DNA of 64,000 nucleotides from Desulfurellaceae bacterium (GTDB taxonomy: Bacteria; Desulfobacterota; Binatia; Bin18): the NCBI GenBank assembly GCA_021296095.1, contig JAGWBB010000020.1, positions 605 through 64,604 of the forward strand, written 5' to 3'. The notes below the pieces were generated by a model. It did not search any database. It was given only the letters and a program-made list of their open reading frames with translations, and had not been told where the DNA came from. A program made the translations under genes and the position numbers. Numbering within the stretch: position 1 is the stretch's first letter; each line of letters begins with the position of its first letter. Positions 15,626-28,485 of the stretch are shown piece after piece.

Positions 15626-17461
15626 CTAGGCTCCGGCCGGTGCCGGGGAATCCTTCATCCCGTCCGGCTCTTTGCCAAACAGCTTAATCATCTCGGCAAT
15701 CTCGGCCCCGTCAAGGACTTCCTTCTCCAGAAGGTGCTCGGCCATCTTGTGCAAGACCTCGATATTGGTCTGCAACAGCGCCTTGGCCCGTTCATAAGCG
15801 TGCATGATGATCTGACGCACCTCGGTATCAATCTCAATCGCCGTCTGCTCAGAATATTCTTTCATCTGGGTGAAATCGCGGCCCAGAAAAATCTGCTCAT
15901 CCTTTTTGCCGAACGTCATCGGCCCCAGCTTCTCACTCATGCCCCACTCACACACCATACGCCGGGCCAGGTCGGTCGCTTTCTCAATATCGTCGCCCGC
16001 GCCGGTCGTGGTATGGCCGAGCACAATCTCTTCCGCCACCCGACCGCCAAACATGACCGCCAGCCGCTTGAGCACATAGTCTTTGGAGAAGGTATGCCGG
16101 TCGTCGACCGGGACTTGCTGGGTCACTCCCAGCGCCATGCCGCGCGGGATGATCGAGACCTTGTGGACCGGATCGGTGCCGGGGGTGAGTCCGGCGACGA
16201 GCGCATGGCCAGCCTCGTGGTAGGCGGTGTTGCGTTTCTCTTCGGACGTCAGGATCAGGCTGCGCCGCTCAGCTCCCATCAAGACTTTGTCTTTGGACAG
16301 CTCAAAGTCTTCCATGCCGACTTTTTCTTTGTTCTGGCGGGCGGCCAGCAGGGCGGCCTCGTTCACCAGGTTCTCAAGATCGGCCCCGGAGAAACCCGGC
16401 GTTGCCCGGGCCAGGGTTTCGACATCAACACTCTCGTCGGTTGGAACCCGGCGGCTGTGGACGCGCAGGATCTCTTCACGGCCACGGACATCCGGGTGGG
16501 GCACGACCACCCGCCGATCAAACCGTCCCGGCCGCAGCAGGGCCGGATCGAGCACGTCGGGCCGGTTGGTGGCGGCAATGAGGATCACCCCCTCATTGGC
16601 CTCGAACCCGTCCATCTCGACCAGGAGCTGATTGAGCGTCTGCTCGCGTTCGTCGTGGCCGCCGCCCAGTCCCGCCCCGCGGTGGCGACCGACCGCGTCA
16701 ATCTCGTCGATAAAGATCAGGCACGGCGCCTGTTTCTTGCCCTGGATGAACAGGTCGCGGACGCGCGACGCGCCGACGCCGACAAACATCTCGACAAAGT
16801 CGGAGCCGCTGATGGAAAAGAACGGCACCCCGGCCTCGCCGGCAATCGCCCGGGCCAGCAGGGTTTTCCCGGTTCCCGGCGCGCCAACCAGCAACACGCC
16901 CTTGGGAATCCGACCGCCCAGGCGGGTGAACTTTTTGGGGTCTTTCAGGAAGGCGATGATCTCTTCCAGCTCCTGCTTGGCCTCCTCAATGCCCGCGACA
17001 TCACTAAAAGTCACCGTCTGCTGATTTTCGGTCAGCACCTTGGCGCGGCTCTTGCCAAACGACATGGCCTTGCCCCCGCCCATCTGCATCTGGCGCATGA
17101 AGAACACCCAGACGCCGATCAGGAGCAGCATCGGGAACCACTGGACCAGAACCGCCACATACCACGGATCGCTGTCCTCGGGCCGGGCGCTCACTCGCAC
17201 GCCCTGCTCGCGCAGGGTGTGCATCAGCTCGGGATCGTCCGGCGCAAAGGTGGTAAAGCGGCTGTCGTCGCTGAAGCGGCCGTGGATCGTCTGTCCCTGT
17301 ATGGTGACCTCGGAGACTTCCCCGCGTTGGAGAGCGGCAAAGAAATCGCTGAACGCTACCTCGGGTTTTGGGGACTGCTGGCGGCTGAATACGTTAAACA
17401 GCAGGAGAATCATGAGTCCCAACACCAGCCATAAAGCGAGATTGTGTGAAACTTTGTTCAC
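15626..17461 (-). CDS. ftsH: ATP-dependent zinc metalloprotease FtsH
   Basis: 611 aa. Contains the AAA+ Walker A motif [19 protein letters not shown], the SRH segment, and the zinc motif HEAGHAL in the M41 peptidase domain. Confidence 0.95.
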
Positions 17462-17495: not shown

Positions 17496-18977
17496 CTAAC
17501 ATAGTTCTACTTTCTCCGGCAATGGGCTGACCACGCACTGGCATACCGCACGCGTCGTCGTCGTCACCAGTCCGACCTTGCCCCGGACGTGGCCAGGCAC
17601 CCAGGCCACCTCGACATCGTTGTCCGCCACAACGACCAGGGGAAAGACTGGGCGCAGACGGCGCGGCAGCTTGGCATCACTGAATACATCGTAAACTTTC
17701 TTTCGGCCAGCCATGCCCAGGGGAGCAATCCGGTCTCCGGGACGTGCGCTCCGGATCTGGAGTCCTGAGGCCACCAGCCTGGCGTCAAACACGGTCCGCC
17801 ACGGGTCAACCGTTCGTGCCTGGGCCGGAGCAGCCTGCCACGCGATCGGCGCACCCAGCCGACACCGCCAGCCGCTACCGGGAATGTGGAGGACGGCGGG
17901 CAGCCTCAGCTCTTGTCCGCAGGCGATGGGGTAGGCGTAGGGTTGGGTGATGAGTCGCTTTGGCTCAGCGATCAGACAGCCGTGCTCGACCCGGACCTGG
18001 AGGCTGCCGGGCAGTTCAACAGTCCCCCGGATCCGGCCCTCAGCCAGGACGCAGACCTGTTCGAGGTGGCGAAAGCCCAGTTCGCGGTCGGGATCGGCGC
18101 GTTCGAGCCACTGGCGCACGATACGCACCCGTAGGGCTGCGGGCTCCGCCGCCCAGGCGTGCAGGCACAGGCCGGGCTTACCGTCCCGCTCCTGCTCGAC
18201 GCGCTCCCGCGCTCCCGTTGTCGCGGCTTCGAGCCAGTCCTCCTCTGCGCGCAGAGTGTCGGCCAGATGAACCAGATGACGAGCGATACGGGGCGAGAAC
18301 TCGGTCGCCAGCAGGGGCAGCAGACGGTGCCGAATGCGGTTGCGGGCATAGCTCAGGTCGGCGTTGCTGGGATCGGTCACAGACGACAGCCTGCGCTCGG
18401 CCAGATACGCCAGGACTTCCTGCCGCGTACAGTCCAGCAGCGGACGGATGAGCCGCTTATCCCCCCGCGTTCCGATCATACGGCTCGGCGGCATACCGCT
18501 CAGGCCACGCCGGGCACTGCCCCGCAAGAGCCGAAACAACACGGTTTCGGCCTGGTCGTCCCGGGTATGGGCCAGAGCCAGATAGTCCAGCCCCTCCCGC
18601 TCCATTGCCACGCCAAAAAACCGATAGCGCTCGGCGCGCGCCCAGGCTTCGAGGCCATGTGGGGGGGAGGAGTCCAGTTTCTTGACCACACAGGGCAGCT
18701 GCCAGCGCCGACACAGCCGCTCGACGTGACGCTGTTCACGCTCGGCTTCCGGCCGCAGCCCATGGTTGACGTGGAGCACGCTGAGGGACAGTCGGGTGCT
18801 CTCCGGTTGGGCCAGCAGGGCGCTCAACAGGGCCACCGAGTCCGGGCCACCTGACACCCCGACTCCAATACGGATGGGGCGGTCACCCGGACCAGCATCT
18901 CCTTGGGAGGAAAAAAACCGCGCCAGAGCGGTTTTGACCTTGCGTTCGAGCGGAGAAAAACGCAAGCGATTTTTCAC
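17496..18977 (-). CDS. tilS: tRNA(Ile)-lysidine synthetase
   Basis: PP-loop motif IGVGVSGGPDSVALL. There is no in-frame ATG upstream of the PP-loop other than the far ATG at 19220, so the start is proposed at the GTG at 18977 (VKNRLRFSPLERK...), which has a GGAG 7 nt upstream. The N-terminal extent is uncertain. Confidence 0.7.
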   Translation of the reverse strand: MKNRLRFSPLERKVKTALARFFSSQGDAGPGDRPIRIGVGVSGGPDSVALLSALLAQPESTRLSLSVLHVNHGLRPEAEREQRHVERLCRRWQLPCVVKKLDSSPPHGLEAWARAERYRFFGVAMEREGLDYLALAHTRDDQAETVLFRLLRGSARRGLSGMPPSRMIGTRGDKRLIRPLLDCTRQEVLAYLAERRLSSVTDPSNADLSYARNRIRHRLLPLLATEFSPRIARHLVHLADTLRAEEDWLEAATTGARERVEQERDGKPGLCLHAWAAEPAALRVRIVRQWLERADPDRELGFRHLEQVCVLAEGRIRGTVELPGSLQVRVEHGCLIAEPKRLITQPYAYPIACGQELRLPAVLHIPGSGWRCRLGAPIAWQAAPAQARTVDPWRTVFDARLVASGLQIRSARPGDRIAPLGMAGRKKVYDVFSDAKLPRRLRPVFPLVVVADNDVEVAWVPGHVRGKVGLVTTTTRAVCQCVVSPLPEKVELC

Positions 18978-19073
18978 ATCCAGACTCCAGGAATGCACCC
19001 TTCCATACACCAAGCCTGGAGCGGTCGGCAAGGTCCTTGTGCCACGGCGAGAAGCTTGGCATGATGCCGAGCT

Positions 19074-19727
19074 GTGCGGCACCGCGTATTGGCATATCTT
19101 CGGTGGGTTCTGTTTGTCGGCTGCCTGCTTGGACCCGGCTCCGCTTCGGCAACCGACCTCCCCACCTGGAATCGGTCGCTCCCACCGGGCTTGGCGGAGC
19201 TGCTCCACGAACTCCACCAAAAGTATGGCCCCGATACGATTGCCCTCTTAGGCCGCCTGCTCGATACCGCCAGACGTAGCGGCGGTCTGCTCACCGCATC
19301 GGTGGAAGTGGTTGGCATTGAAACCCGGCAAGAACAGACCTTCCTGACTTTTCGGGTGCAGACCGGCCTGATCTATAACTCTCAAGTGCTGAACCCAACC
19401 GACCGGCTGGTGGACCTGTGGACCAAGATCGTGGCGCAGTCGTTCTTGGCCTTTGAGACCCTGGAATTTCCGGCCGACGGCGTGATGCTGGCCCTCCACT
19501 ACCACTCCCGACCCTACGCCAACCTTGAGCAGCTGAACGCGGCGCTCGACGATCCCGATCAGGCGGGCGAAGCCGGAGAGGTCAAGTTCTATTTCCCGAC
19601 AGAACCCCTGCACGCCTTTCTGAACAAAGAACTCTCGGCTCAGGAGCTGCTGGCCCAAGCCACCATTCTTGCCAACGGAGTCCCGGTCAGCCTCCAGCTT
19701 CCCCCCGCCCCAAAGAGCCAGACCTAG
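19074..19727 (+). CDS. Hypothetical secreted protein
   Basis: 217 aa ORF that does not overlap a better ORF. The N-terminus, MRHRVLAYLRWVLFVGCLLGPGSASA, is signal-peptide-like. No recognisable domain. Confidence 0.5.
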   Translation: MRHRVLAYLRWVLFVGCLLGPGSASATDLPTWNRSLPPGLAELLHELHQKYGPDTIALLGRLLDTARRSGGLLTASVEVVGIETRQEQTFLTFRVQTGLIYNSQVLNPTDRLVDLWTKIVAQSFLAFETLEFPADGVMLALHYHSRPYANLEQLNAALDDPDQAGEAGEVKFYFPTEPLHAFLNKELSAQELLAQATILANGVPVSLQLPPAPKSQT

Positions 19728-19757: not shown

Positions 19758-21065
19758 TCACCGAACGGGCGCGATACCATACTGCCGGAGCGTGTCCTCC
19801 ACAGTCGGCCGACCGAGCCGAATACGATCGTCGTTCAACAGGTAGGAGAAGATGTAGCCCAGGCCAAGCATCAGGATCCCGATCAAAAAGCAATAGATCA
19901 CGGCCCGGTCGGGATAGCTGTCCTTCAGATAACCCACGTACAGGGGACCGAAAATCCCTGCTGCGGCCCAGGCCGTCAGAATCGCTCCGTAGATGGTGGA
20001 CATCTTCTTCATGCCAAAGACATCGAGGACAAAAGAGGGCATGGTGGCAAAGCCGCCTCCGAAGCATAACAGGACGTAACACACGAGCGCGGAAAAGACC
20101 CAGGGGTTCCGCTCGGTCATCAGAATACCGAAGACGATCATCTGACTGAGGAGCAGAATTCTAAAGACCCGAACGCGGCCGATCCGGTCCGAGAGCAGGC
20201 CCCAGAATAGCCGCCCCACTCCGTTGCACAGCGAACTGACGGCGATCAGGGTCGCCCCATACTCGGCCAGCGTTGCCGGCTCCACCGAGGGGTCGGCCAG
20301 TCCCCACACTTCCTGCAGGAGTTGCGATTGAAAGCTGATGACGGAGATGCCCGCCGCGATATTGAAAAAAAAGACGATCCACATGAAGACGAACTCGGAA
20401 GACCGCAGATAGGGCGCAACCGAGTCACTCGATTCCGTCGCATTCCGAGGACTTGGGGCAACAGGTTCACCCCCGGCCGGAGGATCGCTCAAGGCCAGGC
20501 TGGAAGGCAGCAGGATACACGCAAAAACAACTCCGAGCCACAAGAAGATCAGGGCCAGGTCTCCCCCGGTTCGCAGAACCAGAAAGGGCGCCAGTCCCTT
20601 GCTCAAAATAAACGCCCCCACACCGAAGCCCATCACCACGGTACCGGTCACCAAGCCCTTGTAGTCCGGAAACCACTTGGCTGCGGTGGCGACTGGCGTT
20701 ACGTAGCCAAGCCCGATTCCCACCCCACCAATAACGCCATAGCCGAGGTAGAACAGCCCAATAGAGTCCAGATGCAGGGCCAGACTGGCCACAAGATAGC
20801 CACCCGAAAACAGGGCGCTGCCGACCAGCGCCAAGCGGCGCGGCCCGAACCGCGGCAGGGCGGCGCCCGCCCAGGCCGCAGCGGTGCCTAGCGAAAAAAT
20901 CGCGATACTGAAAGCCCAGGCTGTTTCCGTGAACGACCAGCCAAGCTGTCTGACGAGGAGAGTCTGAAAGAAACTCCAGGCATACACCGTCCCAAAGCAC
21001 AGCTGCAGGACGACGCAAAACAGGGCGATGATCGAGCGCGGGAGCCGCGCCTGTGGTTTCGCCAT
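19758..21065 (-). CDS. MFS transporter, oxalate:formate antiporter (OFA) family
   Basis: The 702 aa track ORF is spurious in its first 267 codons, which are Arg-rich. The real start is the ATG at 21065-21063, preceded by GGAG. The product MAKPQARLPRSIIALFCVVLQLCFGTVYAWSFF... has 12 predicted TM segments and the OFA-type YAWSFF motif. Confidence 0.8.
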   Translation of the reverse strand: MAKPQARLPRSIIALFCVVLQLCFGTVYAWSFFQTLLVRQLGWSFTETAWAFSIAIFSLGTAAAWAGAALPRFGPRRLALVGSALFSGGYLVASLALHLDSIGLFYLGYGVIGGVGIGLGYVTPVATAAKWFPDYKGLVTGTVVMGFGVGAFILSKGLAPFLVLRTGGDLALIFLWLGVVFACILLPSSLALSDPPAGGEPVAPSPRNATESSDSVAPYLRSSEFVFMWIVFFFNIAAGISVISFQSQLLQEVWGLADPSVEPATLAEYGATLIAVSSLCNGVGRLFWGLLSDRIGRVRVFRILLLSQMIVFGILMTERNPWVFSALVCYVLLCFGGGFATMPSFVLDVFGMKKMSTIYGAILTAWAAAGIFGPLYVGYLKDSYPDRAVIYCFLIGILMLGLGYIFSYLLNDDRIRLGRPTVEDTLRQYGIAPVR

Positions 21066-21145
21066 TCTCACTCCATCGCCTCTCGCAATTTCCCCGTGCG
21101 CTCCACCCCGCGCGGCGCGCCGTCGGAACTCCCGTGCGGACAGCG

Positions 21146-21949
21146 CTACCTCTCGCTTCCGGACGGCGCGGCCCGCCCCTCGCCCTCGACACCGGTGCGG
21201 TCCGCCAAGCCTTCGCTTCCGGGCGGTGCCGACTGCCCTCCTTCGGCATCCCGGCCCTGGGCAAAATAGAGGAACAGGCGGGCCAGTTGGCCGACCTCGT
21301 CGTTTCGTCCCAGCAGCTCGTCGTCCGCCGCTCCCACGCCATCCCGGCCACGCGCCAGCTCCACCGCATAAGCCAGCAGGTCGCCCAGCGGCTTGGCCGC
21401 CAGGTTGACGAACCAGATGGCAGAAAAGACGCCAACAACCAGGATGATCGAGATCAGATACACCTGGCGCCCGATCGCTCTTTGAATTTTCAGTGCAATC
21501 AGACCCGTGTCCATGCCGACATGAACGGTGCCCGCAACGCCGGCCAGAATCGGGCTGCCGACTTCCACGAAATCTCCCATGCCGGGCAGATTGCGTTCCA
21601 CGGTCTCGGTACGCGTCGCGTCTCCGAGCCGAATCTCTTCGGGAATGCCGGGAACAAACGTGTGGGCCAGCAACTCGCCTGTTTCGTCCGTGATGTAGAT
21701 ATAGCGGATGCTCTGAATTTCGACGAACTGGTCGATGAGCGATTGCAGGGCCGCCAGATCCCGATTCAAGAGAATGTCCACGCTCGAATCGGCGATGGTC
21801 TTGGCAATGTTCTTGCTGTTGCTCTCGTACTCCTCCGACAAATGTGTATCGACCGTGTAGACACACAGAATGGAGGTTGACAGGCTGATCGCCCCAAACA
21901 GAAAAAACACGCCGAACAGCGTTTTCTGAAAAAGTTTGTGGACCTTCAT
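21146..21949 (-). CDS. Membrane sensor-like protein: TM, single Cache-like periplasmic domain, TM, HAMP, no output domain
   Basis: 267 aa. The TM1 helix is FGVFFLFGAISLSTSILCVYTV. The periplasmic region carries the Cache-like motif YIYITDETGELLAHTFVPG. TM2 is followed by a HAMP domain (AKPLGDLLAYAVELARGRDGV...DEVGQLARLF) and then about 35 low-complexity residues to the stop. The start codon is 1 nt after the upstream binding-protein stop. Confidence 0.7.
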   Translation of the reverse strand: MKVHKLFQKTLFGVFFLFGAISLSTSILCVYTVDTHLSEEYESNSKNIAKTIADSSVDILLNRDLAALQSLIDQFVEIQSIRYIYITDETGELLAHTFVPGIPEEIRLGDATRTETVERNLPGMGDFVEVGSPILAGVAGTVHVGMDTGLIALKIQRAIGRQVYLISIILVVGVFSAIWFVNLAAKPLGDLLAYAVELARGRDGVGAADDELLGRNDEVGQLARLFLYFAQGRDAEGGQSAPPGSEGLADRTGVEGEGRAAPSGSER

Positions 21950-21950
21950 G

Positions 21951-23258
21951 TTATGAAAATCTGGCTTCCCAATTATCCAGCGTCACAAACCGGCCCTCAG
22001 CGACAACGGTATAGTAGACTTGCTGGAGACCTTGACGACGCTCGGGACCGAAGGAAACCGGCTCACCAATGCCGAGATCGAAATCCCGGACGCTGAACAC
22101 CGCCTTCTCGAGACGGCCGCGTGCCGGGTCGTCGCCAAGCCGGCGCAGCACTTCTACCATCAGCTTGGCGTTGAGGAACCCCTCGAGGCTGACGAAGCTG
22201 TGGGCAAAGGGCGTGTAGGCTTCCTTCAATAGTGCCGTGGGGGGCTGCGGATCGTAGCGTTGCATCAATGCACGATATTCTCTGACGGCCGGTATGGCGG
22301 TTTCTTCATAACTCGGCACCACCTGAGAATTGACCAGCAGTCGCGTATACGGATCGCTGTCGCCACCCATCTCGGTCAGGAGTTTCAACAGGTTTTCGCT
22401 ACCGACAAAGGACAGGTTGGCAATCGGCACCCGCAGCCCGAGGTCTACCGCATCACGCACGAAGGCCGCGCAGGCCGCATACGAGCCGATACAGATCACC
22501 GCCTGGGGCTCGGACGCCTTCAATATTTCGACCTGCTTGCGCATGCTGGCGGTGAACTTTTCGCCCCGGCGGTAGGTCGCCTCGCCGACAATCCGTTCCC
22601 CGTACTGCTGGAGGGCACGTCTGACCCCAGCCCAGCCGCTCCGTCCATAGGCGTCGGCCTGGTAGAACACGGCAAGGCGTCTGCGCTTGATGCGCACGAA
22701 ATTGTCGACCAGACCGGCGGTTTCCTGGCGATAGGAGGCGCGCAGATTAAAGGCGAAGTCGCCATACGGCGGCTCCCGCTGCGGCTGCGCTCCGGTAAAG
22801 GGGAAGAACAAAAAGATATTCCGGTCCTGGAACTTCTTGAGCATGGGCAGGACACGGGTCACCGTTGGCGTGCCAACGTAACCGAACAGCAGAAACACCT
22901 GGTCTTGTAGCATCAGCTGCATGGTGTTCCTGACCGACGGGTCGGGTTGGTAGCCGTCGTCATACGTTTTGAGCGTCACCTTGCGGCCGGCCACGCCCCC
23001 GTGCCGGTTGACATGCGTGAAGTAGGCGCTGGCCCCTCGCCACAGCTCGATGCCCAGCCCCCGGGAGGGACCGGAGAATGCCGCCGACACCCCGAGAATG
23101 ATCTCGGTGTCGGTCAGACCGGACGCCGTCCGTTGATCCGACGGGTTTGCCTGCGGCGCAGACTGGTCGGCAATTGCCTCCAGGGGTTTCAACCACGGCA
23201 TGACCAGACAGCAGCGCAAACCGGAACGGAGTAACGCTCTCCGTGTCAGTGCGCTCAT
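21951..23258 (-). CDS. Periplasmic binding protein, type-1 fold (Leu/Ile/Val-binding / ANF-receptor family), Tat signal
   Basis: Start at the ATG at 23258-23256, preceded by GAGAGGTGGGG. The N-terminus MSALTRRALLRSGL is RR-containing. The roughly 400 aa mature region has periplasmic-binding-protein type-1 composition. It is tightly coupled to the Cache-HAMP gene. Confidence 0.75.
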   Translation of the reverse strand: MSALTRRALLRSGLRCCLVMPWLKPLEAIADQSAPQANPSDQRTASGLTDTEIILGVSAAFSGPSRGLGIELWRGASAYFTHVNRHGGVAGRKVTLKTYDDGYQPDPSVRNTMQLMLQDQVFLLFGYVGTPTVTRVLPMLKKFQDRNIFLFFPFTGAQPQREPPYGDFAFNLRASYRQETAGLVDNFVRIKRRRLAVFYQADAYGRSGWAGVRRALQQYGERIVGEATYRRGEKFTASMRKQVEILKASEPQAVICIGSYAACAAFVRDAVDLGLRVPIANLSFVGSENLLKLLTEMGGDSDPYTRLLVNSQVVPSYEETAIPAVREYRALMQRYDPQPPTALLKEAYTPFAHSFVSLEGFLNAKLMVEVLRRLGDDPARGRLEKAVFSVRDFDLGIGEPVSFGPERRQGLQQVYYTVVAEGRFVTLDNWEARFS

Positions 23259-23565
23259 ATCCCCACCTCTCGCTTCGACGGCAGACAGCCCGATTTTTCC
23301 TCTACAGCGTGCAGGCAAAGGCGGGGCAGCATGCCGGACGAATCTCCCTCTCTCCAGCCGCGTTTGGGCTATACCGCCTGTATCAAGGCCGCGTGACCCA
23401 CTCGGAGAAGAGTGCTCTGGACGAGCCCGTGAGCGAGTGTCGTTCCATTGGCGCGACGCGGCTCAAGACAGTCCCGACGGTTCGAGCGACACGACCGGGA
23501 AGCGAGGCAGTCTCCGCCCGGAGCCGATGACGCGCGACTGTTCAGCCCGTCGGCTCCCCAGCGCC

Positions 23566-23667
23566 CTAGTCTGGATTTCCGGTCAGAAACACCGCAGCGG
23601 CCGATATCGCAGTCAGCACCACCGCAGCCCCGGCAACGATCTGCATAAAGATGGCGAGGGGATCCAT
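23566..23667 (-). CDS. Small hydrophobic peptide ORF (33 aa), possible membrane peptide or leader
   Basis: Found by hand and not in the track. The revcomp reads AAGGAGAAAAGCC ATG GAT CCC CTC GCC ATC TTT ATG CAG ATC GTT GCC ... TAG, giving MDPLAIFMQIVAGAAVVLTAISAAAVFLTGNPD. It has a perfect SD with 7 nt spacing and a single TM-length hydrophobic stretch. Confidence 0.35.
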   Translation of the reverse strand: MDPLAIFMQIVAGAAVVLTAISAAAVFLTGNPD

Positions 23668-23725
23668 GGCTTTTCTCCTTGGCTGAGGCTGGAACTCCAG
23701 CGGGTGTTGATACACGGCGTAGGCG

Positions 23726-23799
23726 TAGCGACGGGCAGAATCGAACTGCCGACCTAGGGATTATGAGACCCTCGCTCTAGCCTACTGAGCTACGTCGCC
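23726..23799 (-). tRNA. tRNA-Met (anticodon CAT, elongator-type loop CUCAUAA)
   Basis: Revcomp reads GGCGACG-TA-GCTC-AGTAGGCTA-GAGC-G-AGGGT-CTCATAA-TCCCT-AGGTC-GGCAG-TTCGATT-CTGCC-CGTCGCT-A. It has a 7 bp acceptor stem with a G1·U72 wobble. The T-loop is TTCGATT and the anticodon is CAT. There is one U-U mismatch at positions 31-39. CCA is not encoded. Confidence 0.7.
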
Positions 23800-25970: not shown

Positions 25971-27149
25971 GTGCACGAGCCCGTTTCCGAGCATGTTTCT
26001 CCGAGCTTTGATCAGCTCCTGCAGAACGCAGCGGATGGCCGACAGCTGTCGGCGGCCGAGGGCTATCGCCTGCTCCACTGTACGGACGAGGAGTTCCCGG
26101 CTCTGCTGGCGACCGCCGGCGACCTGCGCGACCGCCACAAGGGTCGGACGGTCACCTACTCACGCAAGCTCTTTCTGCCGGTCACCAACCTGTGTCGAGA
26201 TCGCTGCTCGTACTGCACCTTTCGCAAGGACCCGCGCGATCCGGCAGCCTGGACCATGACCCGCGCCGACCTGCGTGAATGGCTGGCCCGGGGCCAAGTC
26301 CAGGGCTGCAAAGAAGCCCTGATGTGTCTGGGCGACAAACCCGAACTGGTCTCTCGGGCCTACCGCACCACCCTGGCCGACCTCGGCCACCGGACCACGA
26401 CCGAATACGTCTACGAGGCGTGCCAGATTGCGCTGTCGTACGGTATTCTGCCCCACACCAACGCGGGTATTCTGAGCGCCGACGAGATGCGCCAGCTCAA
26501 AGACGTGAACGTCAGCCTGGGCTTGATGCTGGAGAATATCAGCCCCCGGCTGCGCGAGCGTGGCATGGCCCATTTTTCGGCGCCGGACAAAGAGCCGGCG
26601 GTGCGGGTCAAGATGATCCGCGAAGCCGGCCAGCTGGAGATTCCCTTCACGACCGGGATTCTGATCGGCATCGGAGAGACGCGCGAGGAAGTGGTCGATA
26701 GTCTGCTCGCCATCCGCGACCTGCACGACGAGCACGAGCATATCCAAGAGGTCATCATCCAGAACTTCCGGGCCAAACCCGACACCCGCATGGCCGGCGC
26801 GCCCGAGCCGGACAGCCCCGAGGTAGCCAAAACCGTAGCCGTGGCCCGGCTACTGCTCGGCGGCCAGATGAATGTCCAAGCGCCGCCCAATCTCAACCCG
26901 GCCGATCATCGTCTCCTGCTGCGGGCCGGCATTAACGACTGGGGAGGCATCTCTCCGGTCACCAAAGACTATGTCAACCCTGAAGCCGCCTGGCCGCATC
27001 TGGACAGCCTGGCCCAGACCTGTCGAGAGGAGGGCTTCAGGCTGCGTGAACGGCTGGCCATTTACCCCGAGTATATTGATCGACCCGGCTGGCTGCTGCC
27101 GGCCCTGCGTCCGCGAACCGAGGAGTTGCAGGCCCAGGTCAGCGCCTGA
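25971..27149 (+). CDS. cofG: FO synthase subunit 1 (7,8-didemethyl-8-hydroxy-5-deazariboflavin synthase CofG), radical SAM
   Basis: GTG start at 25971, preceded by GAGGGGAG. The radical-SAM cluster motif CRDRCSYCTF is present. 392 aa. It is followed by cofH, cofD and cofE. Confidence 0.85.
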   Translation: MHEPVSEHVSPSFDQLLQNAADGRQLSAAEGYRLLHCTDEEFPALLATAGDLRDRHKGRTVTYSRKLFLPVTNLCRDRCSYCTFRKDPRDPAAWTMTRADLREWLARGQVQGCKEALMCLGDKPELVSRAYRTTLADLGHRTTTEYVYEACQIALSYGILPHTNAGILSADEMRQLKDVNVSLGLMLENISPRLRERGMAHFSAPDKEPAVRVKMIREAGQLEIPFTTGILIGIGETREEVVDSLLAIRDLHDEHEHIQEVIIQNFRAKPDTRMAGAPEPDSPEVAKTVAVARLLLGGQMNVQAPPNLNPADHRLLLRAGINDWGGISPVTKDYVNPEAAWPHLDSLAQTCREEGFRLRERLAIYPEYIDRPGWLLPALRPRTEELQAQVSA

Positions 27150-27198
27150 ACCGGCCCCGGCCAACCGCATGTTTTCGGTCTGAAGAAGGAGGCCCACT

Positions 27199-28485
27199 GT
27201 GGCAACCAACGGTCTTGCGAGTGTTCTCGAACATATTGATCCCCAGGTCAGCACGATTCTGCACCGGGCCCTGGACGGGGAAGAGGTGTCCTGGCAGGAA
27301 GGGCTGCGCCTGTGTGAGACAAACGGGCTGGATTTCCAGGTCACGTGCCTGGTTGCGGACGAGATGCGCCGGCGTCAGGTCGGCGAGGTGGTGACGTATG
27401 TGGTCAACCGCAACATCAACTTCACCAACGTGTGCATCAAACACTGCACCTTCTGCGCCTTCAGCCGCGAGTACCGTGAAGAGGAAGGCTATTTTCTGCC
27501 CGAGCAGGAAATCATCCGGCGCGCCCGGGAGGCCGTTGATGTGGGCGCCACCGAGGTGTGCATGCAGGCCGGTCTGCCGCCCAAGATGAACGGCAATCTG
27601 TATGTCGATCTGACCCGGGCGGTCAAGAAGGCGCTCCCCGACCTGCATATCCACGCCTTCTCACCCGAAGAGGTCTTGTACGGCGCAACGCGGGCGGCGG
27701 TCTCGATTCCCGACTATCTAGCCGCCCTTAAGGACGCCGGCCTCGATACCCTGCCCGGCACCTCGGCCGAGATTCTTGACCAGGACATCCGTGACCGCAT
27801 CGCCCCGGGCCGCATCACCACCGACCAGTGGATTGAGGTCATCACCTCCGCCCACGGCCTGGGCATTCCGACCACCTCGACAATTATGTACGGCCATATC
27901 GAGACCCCCCAGCACTGGGTCAAGCATATGAACCTGCTGCGCGACATCCAGAAGGACACCGGCGGCTTTACCGAGTTCGTTCCCCTGTCCCTGATTCACC
28001 AGGAAGCGCCGATGTACCAGCGCAAACTGGTTGACAATGTGCGGCAGGGCGCGACCGGCACGGAAGTCGTCAAGATGCACGCGGTCGCCCGTCTGATGCT
28101 CGGCCCGACCTTCCGCAATATTCAATCGTCGTGGGTCAAAGAGGGCCCGAAGATGGCCCAGCATCTGCTGAACGTCGGGGCCAACGACCTGGGCGGCACC
28201 CTGATCAACGAGAGTATCTCCACCTCGGCCGGCGCCCAGTACGGACAGCTCGTCCCGCCCAAAGAACTCCGACGGCTGATCCGCGATGTAGGTCGCACCC
28301 CGGCCGAGCGTGGGACGACCTACAAGCTGCGGACGGTCTTCAGCGGTCAGGACGAGGAGCTGAGCCCGCTTGATCTGGTCGAAAACCCGGACGAGCAGTT
28401 CGGTTCCTACCGCAGGCTGACCGCCTCGGATCAGTTCCGCTACGTGCATCCGTTCGAACGCGAGAAGCGGGCCGCTTCTCACTGA
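27199..28485 (+). CDS. cofH: FO synthase subunit 2 (CofH), radical SAM
   Basis: GTG start at 27199 with an AAGGAGG SD. CxxxCxxC motif CIKHCTFC. 428 aa, CofH-like in length and composition. Confidence 0.85.
   Translation: MATNGLASVLEHIDPQVSTILHRALDGEEVSWQEGLRLCETNGLDFQVTCLVADEMRRRQVGEVVTYVVNRNINFTNVCIKHCTFCAFSREYREEEGYFLPEQEIIRRAREAVDVGATEVCMQAGLPPKMNGNLYVDLTRAVKKALPDLHIHAFSPEEVLYGATRAAVSIPDYLAALKDAGLDTLPGTSAEILDQDIRDRIAPGRITTDQWIEVITSAHGLGIPTTSTIMYGHIETPQHWVKHMNLLRDIQKDTGGFTEFVPLSLIHQEAPMYQRKLVDNVRQGATGTEVVKMHAVARLMLGPTFRNIQSSWVKEGPKMAQHLLNVGANDLGGTLINESISTSAGAQYGQLVPPKELRRLIRDVGRTPAERGTTYKLRTVFSGQDEELSPLDLVENPDEQFGSYRRLTASDQFRYVHPFEREKRAASH

Follow-up and report, generated by a model that had tools for sequence, protein, structure and literature searches.

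No family of secondary carriers is larger than the major facilitator superfamily (MFS), whose members are regarded as working alone. Reviews name the ATP-binding cassette (ABC), TRAP and TTT systems as the only transport families that depend on a binding protein (PMC5812351), and a further secondary class of this kind, TAXI-GltS, was added in 2025 (PMC12344293). Binding proteins also act in sensing, BasB/BasT and LuxP/LuxQ being binding-protein-dependent sensor pairs (PMC8050422). Here we describe a three-gene locus in a 64,000-nucleotide stretch from a Desulfurellaceae bacterium of the Binatia (GCA_021296095.1, contig JAGWBB010000020.1, positions 605 to 64,604; the whole stretch is referred to as the window). 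It encodes a periplasmic binding protein (SBP), a two-transmembrane (TM) Cache-HAMP receptor without an output domain and an MFS carrier. The initial annotation of the window had stated that binding-protein dependence of secondary transport is established for TRAP and TTT systems and not for MFS carriers, which agrees with the literature searched (PMC5812351, PMC12344293). It had also called the arrangement undescribed, and full-text searches with combinations of SBP, MFS, HAMP, Cache and SBP-dependence found no description of it. We observed that the three genes are linked across phyla, and we tentatively propose that the receptor acts on the carrier encoded next to it.

All three open reading frames (ORFs) lie on the minus strand in the order SBP, receptor, carrier, as seen from the ORF listing and by direct reading, and the whole system is compact (three genes, 3.5 kb). 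The SBP gene (21951–23258; 435 amino acids, aa) has a Shine-Dalgarno-like site, GAGGTGGGG, just 5' of its ATG and ends with a TAA at 21953–21951. The receptor gene (21146–21949; 267 aa) starts with an ATG at 21949, base 21950 being the sole spacer between the two, exactly as first annotated; this 1-nt junction is one of translational coupling. The receptor stop codon (21146–21148) is followed by an 80-nt spacer (21066–21145) with a GGAG ribosome-binding site 6 nt ahead of the carrier start (ATG at 21065), and the carrier gene occupies 19758–21065 (435 aa). A 702-aa ORF at 19758–21866 was rejected as a gene, as it is merely an in-frame upstream extension of the carrier ORF. Paralogues of the SBP, receptor or MFS genes were not found elsewhere in the 64-kb window, and a promoter and terminator scan gave no signal above chance.

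The arrangement is widely conserved. Receptor homologues numbered 861 at E ≤ 1e-3, and the best 120 of them, for which lengths were read, were all 230–283 aa long and 69–94% identical. A one-genome-per-species scan gave 469 relatives, of which the best 80 loci (L001–L080), all from metagenome-assembled genomes (MAGs), were analysed. Each of these 80 loci carried SBP, receptor and MFS genes, with every product 70–99% identical to the corresponding window protein. Their labels (Binatia, Latescibacterota, Alphaproteobacteria, Gammaproteobacteria/Pseudomonadales and Gemmatimonadota/Longimicrobiales) cover at least five phyla; loci L001–L003, from the window's own lineage, the Binatia, were 94–95% identical. 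The SBP gene adjoined the receptor gene in 74 of the 80 loci and lay within the locus in the other 6. Spacing between SBP stop and receptor start was read in 72 loci; it was −8 to +2 nt in all but one of them, where it was 16 nt. Six gammaproteobacterial loci (L049, L057, L060, L064, L078 and L080) were rearranged, the receptor gene pointing away from the carrier and SBP genes, which share the opposite strand; in these the trio was retained and the usual SBP/receptor translational coupling was gone. As the arrangement recurs in 80 of 80 related genome loci, it is far beyond chance.

When ORFs were clustered over the 80 loci, the SBP, receptor and MFS genes were the only ones universally shared, and the trio is therefore a self-contained cassette that has moved between phyla. 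The contexts varied widely, and no metabolic neighbour that could serve as a clue to the substrate was common beyond single clades. All three proteins were 70–85% identical between MAGs of different phylum labels. Because this identity is much above the expectation for vertical descent, the transfer of the cassette is likely to be recent. Caribbean Ircinia sponges are the source of a part of the MAGs ('jk18x...'; PMC9531527), and it is for these that a sponge origin is established; further isolate names (SB06xx, COS1, RHO, IRC4 and Sanger UUID bins) resemble those of sponge projects and may point the same way. The window bacterium is most likely sponge-associated too. Given the 70–85% identity across at least five phyla and the marine sponge origin of some MAGs, the module is probably a traded, selectively valuable trait in sponge symbiosis.

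The receptor has hydrophobic segments at aa 12–30 and 163–181. A periplasmic single-Cache domain, sCache_3_2 (PF17203; aa 34–155, window 21485–21850), was matched at E 4e-12 (46.8 bits versus a cutoff of 28.4) and was found in 38 of 38 family members. The TM-Cache-TM-HAMP order given in the initial annotation thus held for the TM segments and the Cache domain, while its HAMP domain (aa ~180–235; 21245–21412) remained below the Pfam threshold in the window receptor (PF00672, E 0.041, 14.6 bits versus 25). A HAMP match was obtained in 11 of the 38 family members at E ≤ 10, the best at 7e-5. Nevertheless, the region aligns to relatives of which 58 of 60 have a Pfam HAMP, down to E 1e-17. It reads as an AS1 helix 'KPLGDLLAYAV', a variable connector and an AS2 helix 'DEVGQLARLFLYF', and the AS1 proline and AS2 DExG (P186/E221-type residues) are kept here and throughout the clade of short receptors defined below. 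The assignment of a divergent HAMP is supported by this homology and by the hallmark residues, despite the sub-threshold score.

The receptor ends ~30 aa past the HAMP, in a low-complexity tail (aa 236–267; 21149–21244). No output domain (HisKA/HATPase_c, MCPsignal or GGDEF) was matched by Pfam in the window receptor even at E ≤ 10, and the 12 Pfam families matched by any of the 38 members include no output-domain family; the short tail and the lack of a kinase, MCP or GGDEF output were correctly described at the outset. A conserved C-terminus, which the initial annotation had considered, was not found: across the 81 family members that were aligned, the final ~30 aa keep neither sequence nor length.

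An AlphaFold2 (AF2) model of the receptor (predicted local distance difference test, pLDDT, of 66) has a long N-terminal helix, a five-stranded PDC/Cache sheet at 81–147, a continuous helix at 148–203 comprising TM2 and AS1, and a helix at 218–238 (AS2), with pLDDT below 50 at aa 236–255. This secondary structure fits a PDC/Cache fold with a pair of cytoplasmic helices after it. Foldseek matched it to CitA PASp (23–25% identity), to the WalK, DctB and LuxQ sensor domains and to a LapD-type periplasmic domain. In the CitA alignment the position of the citrate-binding R66 is occupied by Leu, and that of H69 by the His of AHTFVPG, which is invariant. Across phyla the Cache domain hardly varies and keeps the motifs YTVDTHLS, AHTFVPG, LPGMGDF, SPILAG and VHVGMD. 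In databases the receptor is named 'hypothetical protein' or carries a generic CitA-like label.

The origin of the receptor became apparent from its more distant relatives. A search of 1.84 billion cluster representatives gave 1536 receptor relatives, most of which, beyond the close family, are 450–1200 aa long and 33–50% identical over residues 1–230. Both sCache_3_2 and HAMP were present in 58 of 60 long relatives, and the outputs in these 60 were histidine kinase (31), SpoIIE phosphatase (10), MCP (7), GGDEF/EAL (3) and cyclase (1). Trees were quick neighbour-joining (NJ) trees without support values; in that of the shared module, the window receptor, P0121, P0128, P0129, P0130, P0140, P0142 and P0149 (238–380 aa) formed one clade, sister to all the long sensors. 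This short clade extends to ~39% identity. AHTFVP and VHVGMD are common to short receptors and long sensors; residues that set the short clade apart are concentrated in TM1 and in 'QxAIGxQxYLI', a juxtamembrane stretch before TM2. The concern that the window copy is simply truncated was not borne out, the orthologues being short in 120 of the 120 listed and the kinase-bearing relatives forming a separate sister clade without an MFS gene. Cluster look-ups of both receptor clades gave no named, characterised member, only generic or 'hypothetical' names. Homologues of odd length or apparent fusion (P0238, P0136, P0251, P0122 and P0124) are gene calls broken by frameshifts, for which indel errors of the assemblies are the probable cause, and could mislead surveys of domain architecture; P0238 (638 aa), P0136 and P0251 were rejected as receptor-MFS or SBP-receptor fusions on this ground.

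A metagenome scan seeded with six long sensors yielded 80 sensor loci (L081–L160) from JGI and other metagenome records. In 75 of the 80, a gene for an SBP 41–63% identical to that of the window (mostly 50–63%; the lowest values are from matches clipped at contig edges) ends ~10–15 nt upstream of the sensor gene, and 3 of the 5 loci without an upstream SBP are contig-edge cases. None of the 80 sensor loci (0/80) had an MFS gene. Between trio and sensor loci the SBP is better conserved than the sensor module (33–43%), and the trees of SBP and receptor divide alike into trio and sensor. As judged from these comparisons, an SBP with a TM-Cache-TM-HAMP protein is a two-gene sensing module that is widespread and comparable to LuxP/LuxQ or BasB/BasT. 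The SBP is the ancestral partner of the Cache-HAMP module, and the pair in the window shares its origin with the SBP-linked sensors; the window clade lacks the output domain and has the carrier gene in its place in the operon. In the metagenome collection that was scanned, the SBP and sCache_3_2-HAMP sensor pair, with kinase, SpoIIE, MCP or GGDEF outputs, is abundant and its SBP unusually conserved, and our searches turned up no characterised member or known ligand of this family.

A second output-less variant was also observed. At P0148 (L166:2121–5042) an SBP gene is followed by one for a 287-aa Cache-HAMP protein with a conserved coiled coil and then by a ParA/CbiA-like ATPase gene. The C-terminal coiled-coil motif, ...LKQQVxELxIEIDQxKKxKQVAEITExxYF..., recurs in P0132 and P0182. 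Because of this variant with its ParA-like ATPase, we suggest that separately encoded outputs may recur in the Cache-HAMP sensor family.

The genomic context was read in about a dozen divergent members. Trios were found at L165 (SBP, receptor and MFS 60, 47 and 61% identical to those of the window), L161 (53, 46 and 57%) and L169 (45, 39 and 48%), the three proteins diverging in parallel, and every short-clade member with readable context (P0129, P0140, P0128 and P0149) was an SBP-receptor-MFS trio. Gene overlaps of 4 nt are common in the divergent trios, and P0129 has them at both junctions. The trio was intact in 80 of 80 loci and in 7 divergent ones; the co-occurrence for which the initial annotation had proposed to search is therefore present in all 80 loci, the six rearranged ones included, and in every divergent member that could be read. 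The L165 trio (L165:1450–10813) lies inside a thiamine biosynthesis cluster, with a PfkB/HMP-kinase-like gene and two TMP-TENI genes upstream and ThiC, DAO-family oxidase, ThiS and ThiG genes downstream. An Rfam search of the L165 trio region gave no thiamine pyrophosphate (TPP) riboswitch. This location could hint at a thiamine-precursor substrate in the L165 lineage, or be a coincidence.

The SBP matched Pfam PF13458, Peripla_BP_6, at E 2.8e-42 (146.1 bits versus a cutoff of 31.7). Its initial description as a type 1 binding protein stood, the Tat signal noted at the outset is a putative one, and the Leu/Ile/Val-binding-like label is true only at the level of the superfamily, as the LivJ/K-type model PRK15404 was far from being reached (29.7 versus a cutoff of 477). 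The N-terminus, MSALTRRALLRSGL, carries a twin-arginine motif, and a Tat-type signal peptide is predicted at aa 1–30 (MSALTRRALLRSGLRCCLVMPWLKPLEAIA; 23169–23258) from the TRRALL motif; the T-R-R-A-L-L-R motif and a putative cleavage site between ...EAIA and DQ were read by eye. The twin-arginine motif was present in the sampled SBPs of sponge-type trios and in those of L165 and L161, but in just 2 of 64 sensor-type SBPs. The best solved relatives are 4kv7 and 3lop, for neither of which a ligand annotation was given in the sources that were readable.

No ABC permease or ATPase genes adjoin the SBP gene in the window neighbourhood. A motif scan of the flanks, which is not a full annotation, found an ABC ATPase-like ORF in 1 of 80 trio loci and in 1 of 80 sensor loci. 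In an NJ tree the 64 sensor-type SBPs were monophyletic, with no trio SBP among them, and the window SBP represents a trio-specific branch of a sensor-associated SBP family. Since the SBP/Cache-HAMP pair is a widespread two-gene sensor module, the SBP is to be seen as a sensor-type protein rather than an ABC-type binding protein.

The carrier matched MFS_1 at E 2.9e-29. The initial annotation was right in placing an MFS gene 80 nt downstream, and its assignment to the oxalate:formate antiporter (OFA) family proved loose: neither TIGR00890 for oxalate/formate antiporters (181.6 versus 374.85) nor TIGR04259 for OxlT (150.4 versus 335) reached its cutoff, and the L-lactate MFS model NF049980, the SfMCT equivalog, was reached marginally (320.8 versus 320). 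The closest PDB sequences were SfMCT (5.5e-31) and OxlT (1.2e-20). The AF2 model (pLDDT 92.1) has 12 TM helices, a short periplasmic helix in loop 7–8 and a cytoplasmic tail helix at 422–428; Foldseek matched it to SfMCT and OxlT at TMq 0.74–0.80 and then to human MCTs. We describe it as SfMCT/OxlT-like, of the bacterial SLC16/OFA type. The substrate-site residues of SfMCT, Y119, N276 and R280, correspond to Y121, N281 and R285 of the carrier. As these Tyr, Asn and Arg residues do not vary among 55 relatives and are found in the divergent trios as well, a carboxylate is the likely class of substrate.

Relatives of a divergent trio carrier fell into two groups, 'CFGG' and 'CYGG'. Carriers of the 'CFGG' group have a YPDRAV loop and usually a C-terminal N[DE][RK]...G[KR]P..L.D.L..G[IL] tail, and in 7 of 7 cases (the window, L161, L165, L169, L171, P0352 and L174) they belong to trios. 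The 'CYGG' carriers, which lack the tail, are 43–48% identical and were stand-alone in 3 of 3 cases. Eighteen positions are conserved in the trio carriers and different in the stand-alone ones. Nine of these (L36, F105, V242, T317, E318, S325, D386, V389 and C392) are placed at periplasmic ends or loops, with E318 in loop 9–10 and D386 in loop 11–12, and two (P420 and G430) in the cytoplasmic tail, the sidedness following from the canonical N-in topology of MFS proteins. The tail of the window carrier comprises aa 409–435 (...NDDRIRLGRPTVEDTLRQYGIAPVR; 19761–19841). The C-terminal motif was rejected as a strict marker of trios, since the trio members P0352 and P0332 are without it. The trio carriers are a distinct clade, with the stand-alone group as its sister. 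Because close stand-alone relatives exist, at 43–45% identity to the L169 trio carrier used as query, the carrier core is probably competent alone, and the partners look like a regulatory or affinity add-on.

We consider it quite probable that the three proteins form one unit. For the working of this unit we favour ligand gating, with a probability of roughly 0.45: the output of the receptor would be the co-encoded carrier, all three proteins being one membrane unit. The SBP, presumably exported by the Tat route, would capture a small ligand, probably a carboxylate, in the periplasm. Loaded SBP would dock on the Cache domain of a dimeric two-TM receptor, as on LuxQ- and TorS-type sensors, and the TM2/HAMP switch would change state. 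With no kinase, chemoreceptor or cyclase to act on, this switch would turn the SfMCT/OxlT-like carrier on or off. Receptor and carrier would meet in the membrane, at the periplasmic face of the carrier and possibly at its cytoplasmic C-terminal tail, and the net result would be a ligand-gated monocarboxylate-type carrier.

This proposal builds on the gene anatomy, on an obligate linkage across phyla and deep divergence, on a common origin with SBP-linked sensors and on trio-specific clades of all three proteins; the ligand class and the sign and direction of regulation are what we infer. As the HAMP hallmark residues persist through the whole short clade, a transmembrane switch appears to be still needed. 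Three points favour gating: the HAMP has been kept, the SBP has its ancestry among sensors, and the carrier has gained no periplasmic domain. A role in signal relay is also favoured over that of a pure transport adaptor because the SBP/Cache-HAMP pair is itself a widespread sensor module (75/80 loci).

Several points weigh against gating. No other case in which a HAMP domain would control an MFS carrier is known to us. The HAMP was below the Pfam threshold in the window copy and in 27 of 38 family members, and it could be a mere dimerisation remnant. Both the docking of the SBP on the Cache domain and the physical contact of receptor and carrier are steps that we infer, and the receptor model is of modest confidence (pLDDT 66). 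The C-terminal motif of the carrier is missing in the confirmed trio members P0352 and P0332, and the group-specific residues at its periplasmic face would fit a hand-off of substrate by the SBP equally well.

Such a hand-off is the essence of the best surviving rival, a tripartite uptake system in which the SBP would pass its substrate to the MFS carrier and the Cache-HAMP protein would be a docking subunit like DctQ or TctB, giving uptake that is one-way, of high affinity and independent of ATP. The TRAP/TTT layout has the same three parts (SBP, small membrane protein and 12-TM carrier), the gene coupling suggests a fixed stoichiometry, the motif scan of the flanks found no ABC partner genes, and the trio-specific E318 and D386 lie on periplasmic loops of the carrier. 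The report of the TAXI-GltS class in 2025 indicates that the catalogue of such systems is evidently incomplete (PMC12344293). We regard this explanation as less likely than gating, as the closest relatives of the SBP serve sensors and not transporters, a cytoplasmic HAMP is unnecessary for docking in the periplasm, and the trio carriers have no extra periplasmic domain or loop compared with their stand-alone relatives. The loops of MFS proteins also offer little docking surface for a 40-kDa type I SBP.

Alternatively, the receptor could be a stand-alone sensor with an unlinked cytoplasmic partner, or the carrier a mere co-sensor as in DctA/DcuS, the MFS gene being co-transcribed for moving the sensed compound. 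The receptor does derive from signalling proteins, its output-less relative is paired with a soluble ParA-like ATPase and not with a transporter, and co-sensing by transporter and sensor is established for DcuS-DctA and UhpB-UhpC. What moved between phyla, however, was a cassette of just three genes without any further common neighbour, and an unlinked partner would therefore have to be universal in the hosts; moreover, just ~55 structured cytoplasmic residues are available to bind it. That the trio carriers form a clade with conserved features of their own also speaks for a direct adaptation to SBP and receptor. We hold this alternative to be improbable.

Even less can be said for LapD-like inside-out control, in which the state of the carrier or cytoplasm would pass via HAMP to the Cache domain, which would capture or release the SBP. 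We give it a very low probability: the structural resemblance of the Cache domain to the LapD-type periplasmic output domain (4u64, Foldseek rank 9) and the weak Pfam LapD_MoxY_N matches (E 0.24, 3 of 38 members) reflect a likeness that is weak and generic to PDC folds, CitA, WalK and DctB match as well or better, and the receptor has no cytoplasmic input domain. That the receptor is a decayed two-component sensor, a truncated pseudogene lying by chance between SBP and MFS genes, is refuted by the conservation data and has next to no standing, for long relatives with kinase outputs do exist but all 120 listed homologues are short, the Cache domain is nearly invariant across phyla, the short forms are an old monophyletic clade and the trio occurs in 80 of 80 loci plus 7 divergent ones.

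Leaving the choice between gating and hand-off aside, we lean towards the view that the trio is an unrecognised class of SBP-dependent secondary transporter built on the MFS, in which a Cache-HAMP coupling subunit gates the carrier or mediates the hand-off, and which has spread horizontally among sponge symbionts and other bacteria.

The surroundings of the trio gave some further observations. An Rfam search upstream of the trio had a tRNA as its sole match, and a riboswitch or other RNA element was not found. This tRNA-Met (anticodon CAT; 23725–23799, minus strand) lies ~470 nt upstream of the SBP gene, and a tRNA is found ~590 nt downstream of the carrier gene in the L161 trio. tRNA genes are common insertion sites of islands, and this proximity would fit a horizontal spread of the cassette. 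Between the tRNA and the SBP gene lies a 33-codon ORF (23565–23666, minus strand) for a hydrophobic peptide, MDPLAIFMQIVAGAAVVLTAISAAAVFLTGNPD, with AAGGAG as its strong ribosome-binding site. This ORF is kept only in the closest Binatia relatives, L001–L003, and is therefore not part of the cassette. Further away, two adjoining ORFs of 392 and 428 aa (25971–28485, plus strand) resemble, as judged by eye, CofG and CofH, the radical-SAM pair of F420 (FO) synthesis, and ORFs at 15626–17461 and 17496–19220 were named by eye as FtsH-like and TilS-like, respectively.

Among known systems, LuxP/LuxQ, TorT/TorS, HptA/HptS and BasB/BasT resemble the trio in that an SBP gene adjoins that of a two-TM receptor with a periplasmic Cache/PAS-like domain, and BasB/BasT combines a Peripla_BP_6 SBP with a Cache-like transducer. 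Receptors of the LuxPQ type end in a kinase or chemoreceptor domain, whereas the trio receptor stops after the HAMP and is always co-encoded with an MFS carrier. Af1503 of Archaeoglobus fulgidus, whose HAMP was the first to be solved, is also a membrane receptor that ends in HAMP with no recognisable output domain; we know of no link of Af1503 to an SBP or an MFS carrier. In DcuS-DctA/DcuB, UhpB-UhpC and BceS-BceAB, a membrane sensor of the Cache/PAS type and a transporter are one functional unit, in which the transporter informs the kinase and transcription is changed. The window Cache domain is closest in sequence and fold to the CitA/DcuS type, but with no kinase in the trio, information can only reach the transporter or stop there, unlike in the DcuS-DctA type.

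Like the trio, TRAP, TTT and TAXI-GltS systems have no ATPase and combine in one operon the genes for an SBP, for a small membrane protein and for a large secondary carrier. The components differ in each position: the SBP is of the Peripla_BP_6 family in the trio and DctP, TAXI or TctC in the known systems, the carrier is an MFS protein as against DctM, TctA or GltS, and the small subunit is a Cache-HAMP receptor as against a four-helix scaffold. Pfam matches of the window trio were Peripla_BP_6, sCache_3_2 and MFS_1 only, with no TRAP or TTT family among them. Receptors that depend on an SBP, complexes of transporter and sensor, and SLC16 carriers with ancillary subunits are each already known; the combination found in the trio is probably undescribed, and there is a substantial chance that it represents a new class. 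If function follows genetics, the trio would extend binding-protein dependence to the MFS, or reveal that an extracellular sensor can act on a carrier directly and post-translationally. The trio would be the first HAMP switch with a transporter as its output and an SBP-dependent architecture beside TRAP, TTT and TAXI-GltS, and it would assign a function to HAMP-terminated receptors without an output domain.

SfMCT and OxlT have the same carrier fold and the same Tyr/Asn/Arg positions as the trio carrier but are known as single-protein carriers. A Cache protein is found as an auxiliary subunit in the alpha2-delta protein of voltage-gated calcium channels, which is extracellular, binds ligand and belongs to a membrane transport protein; unlike the trio receptor it is eukaryotic, has a double Cache with a VWA domain and a channel as partner, and has neither a HAMP nor a separate binding protein. 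MCT1 resembles the trio in working with an ancillary protein, basigin or embigin (6lz0, 7ckr, 7yr5), which is anchored in the membrane and has a domain outside the cell. Basigin and embigin are single-pass Ig-domain proteins unrelated to Cache-HAMP, and no binding protein accompanies SfMCT, OxlT or MCT1. If function follows genetics here as well, the trio would be a bacterial counterpart to the dependence of the mammalian SLC16 lactate carriers on an ancillary subunit.

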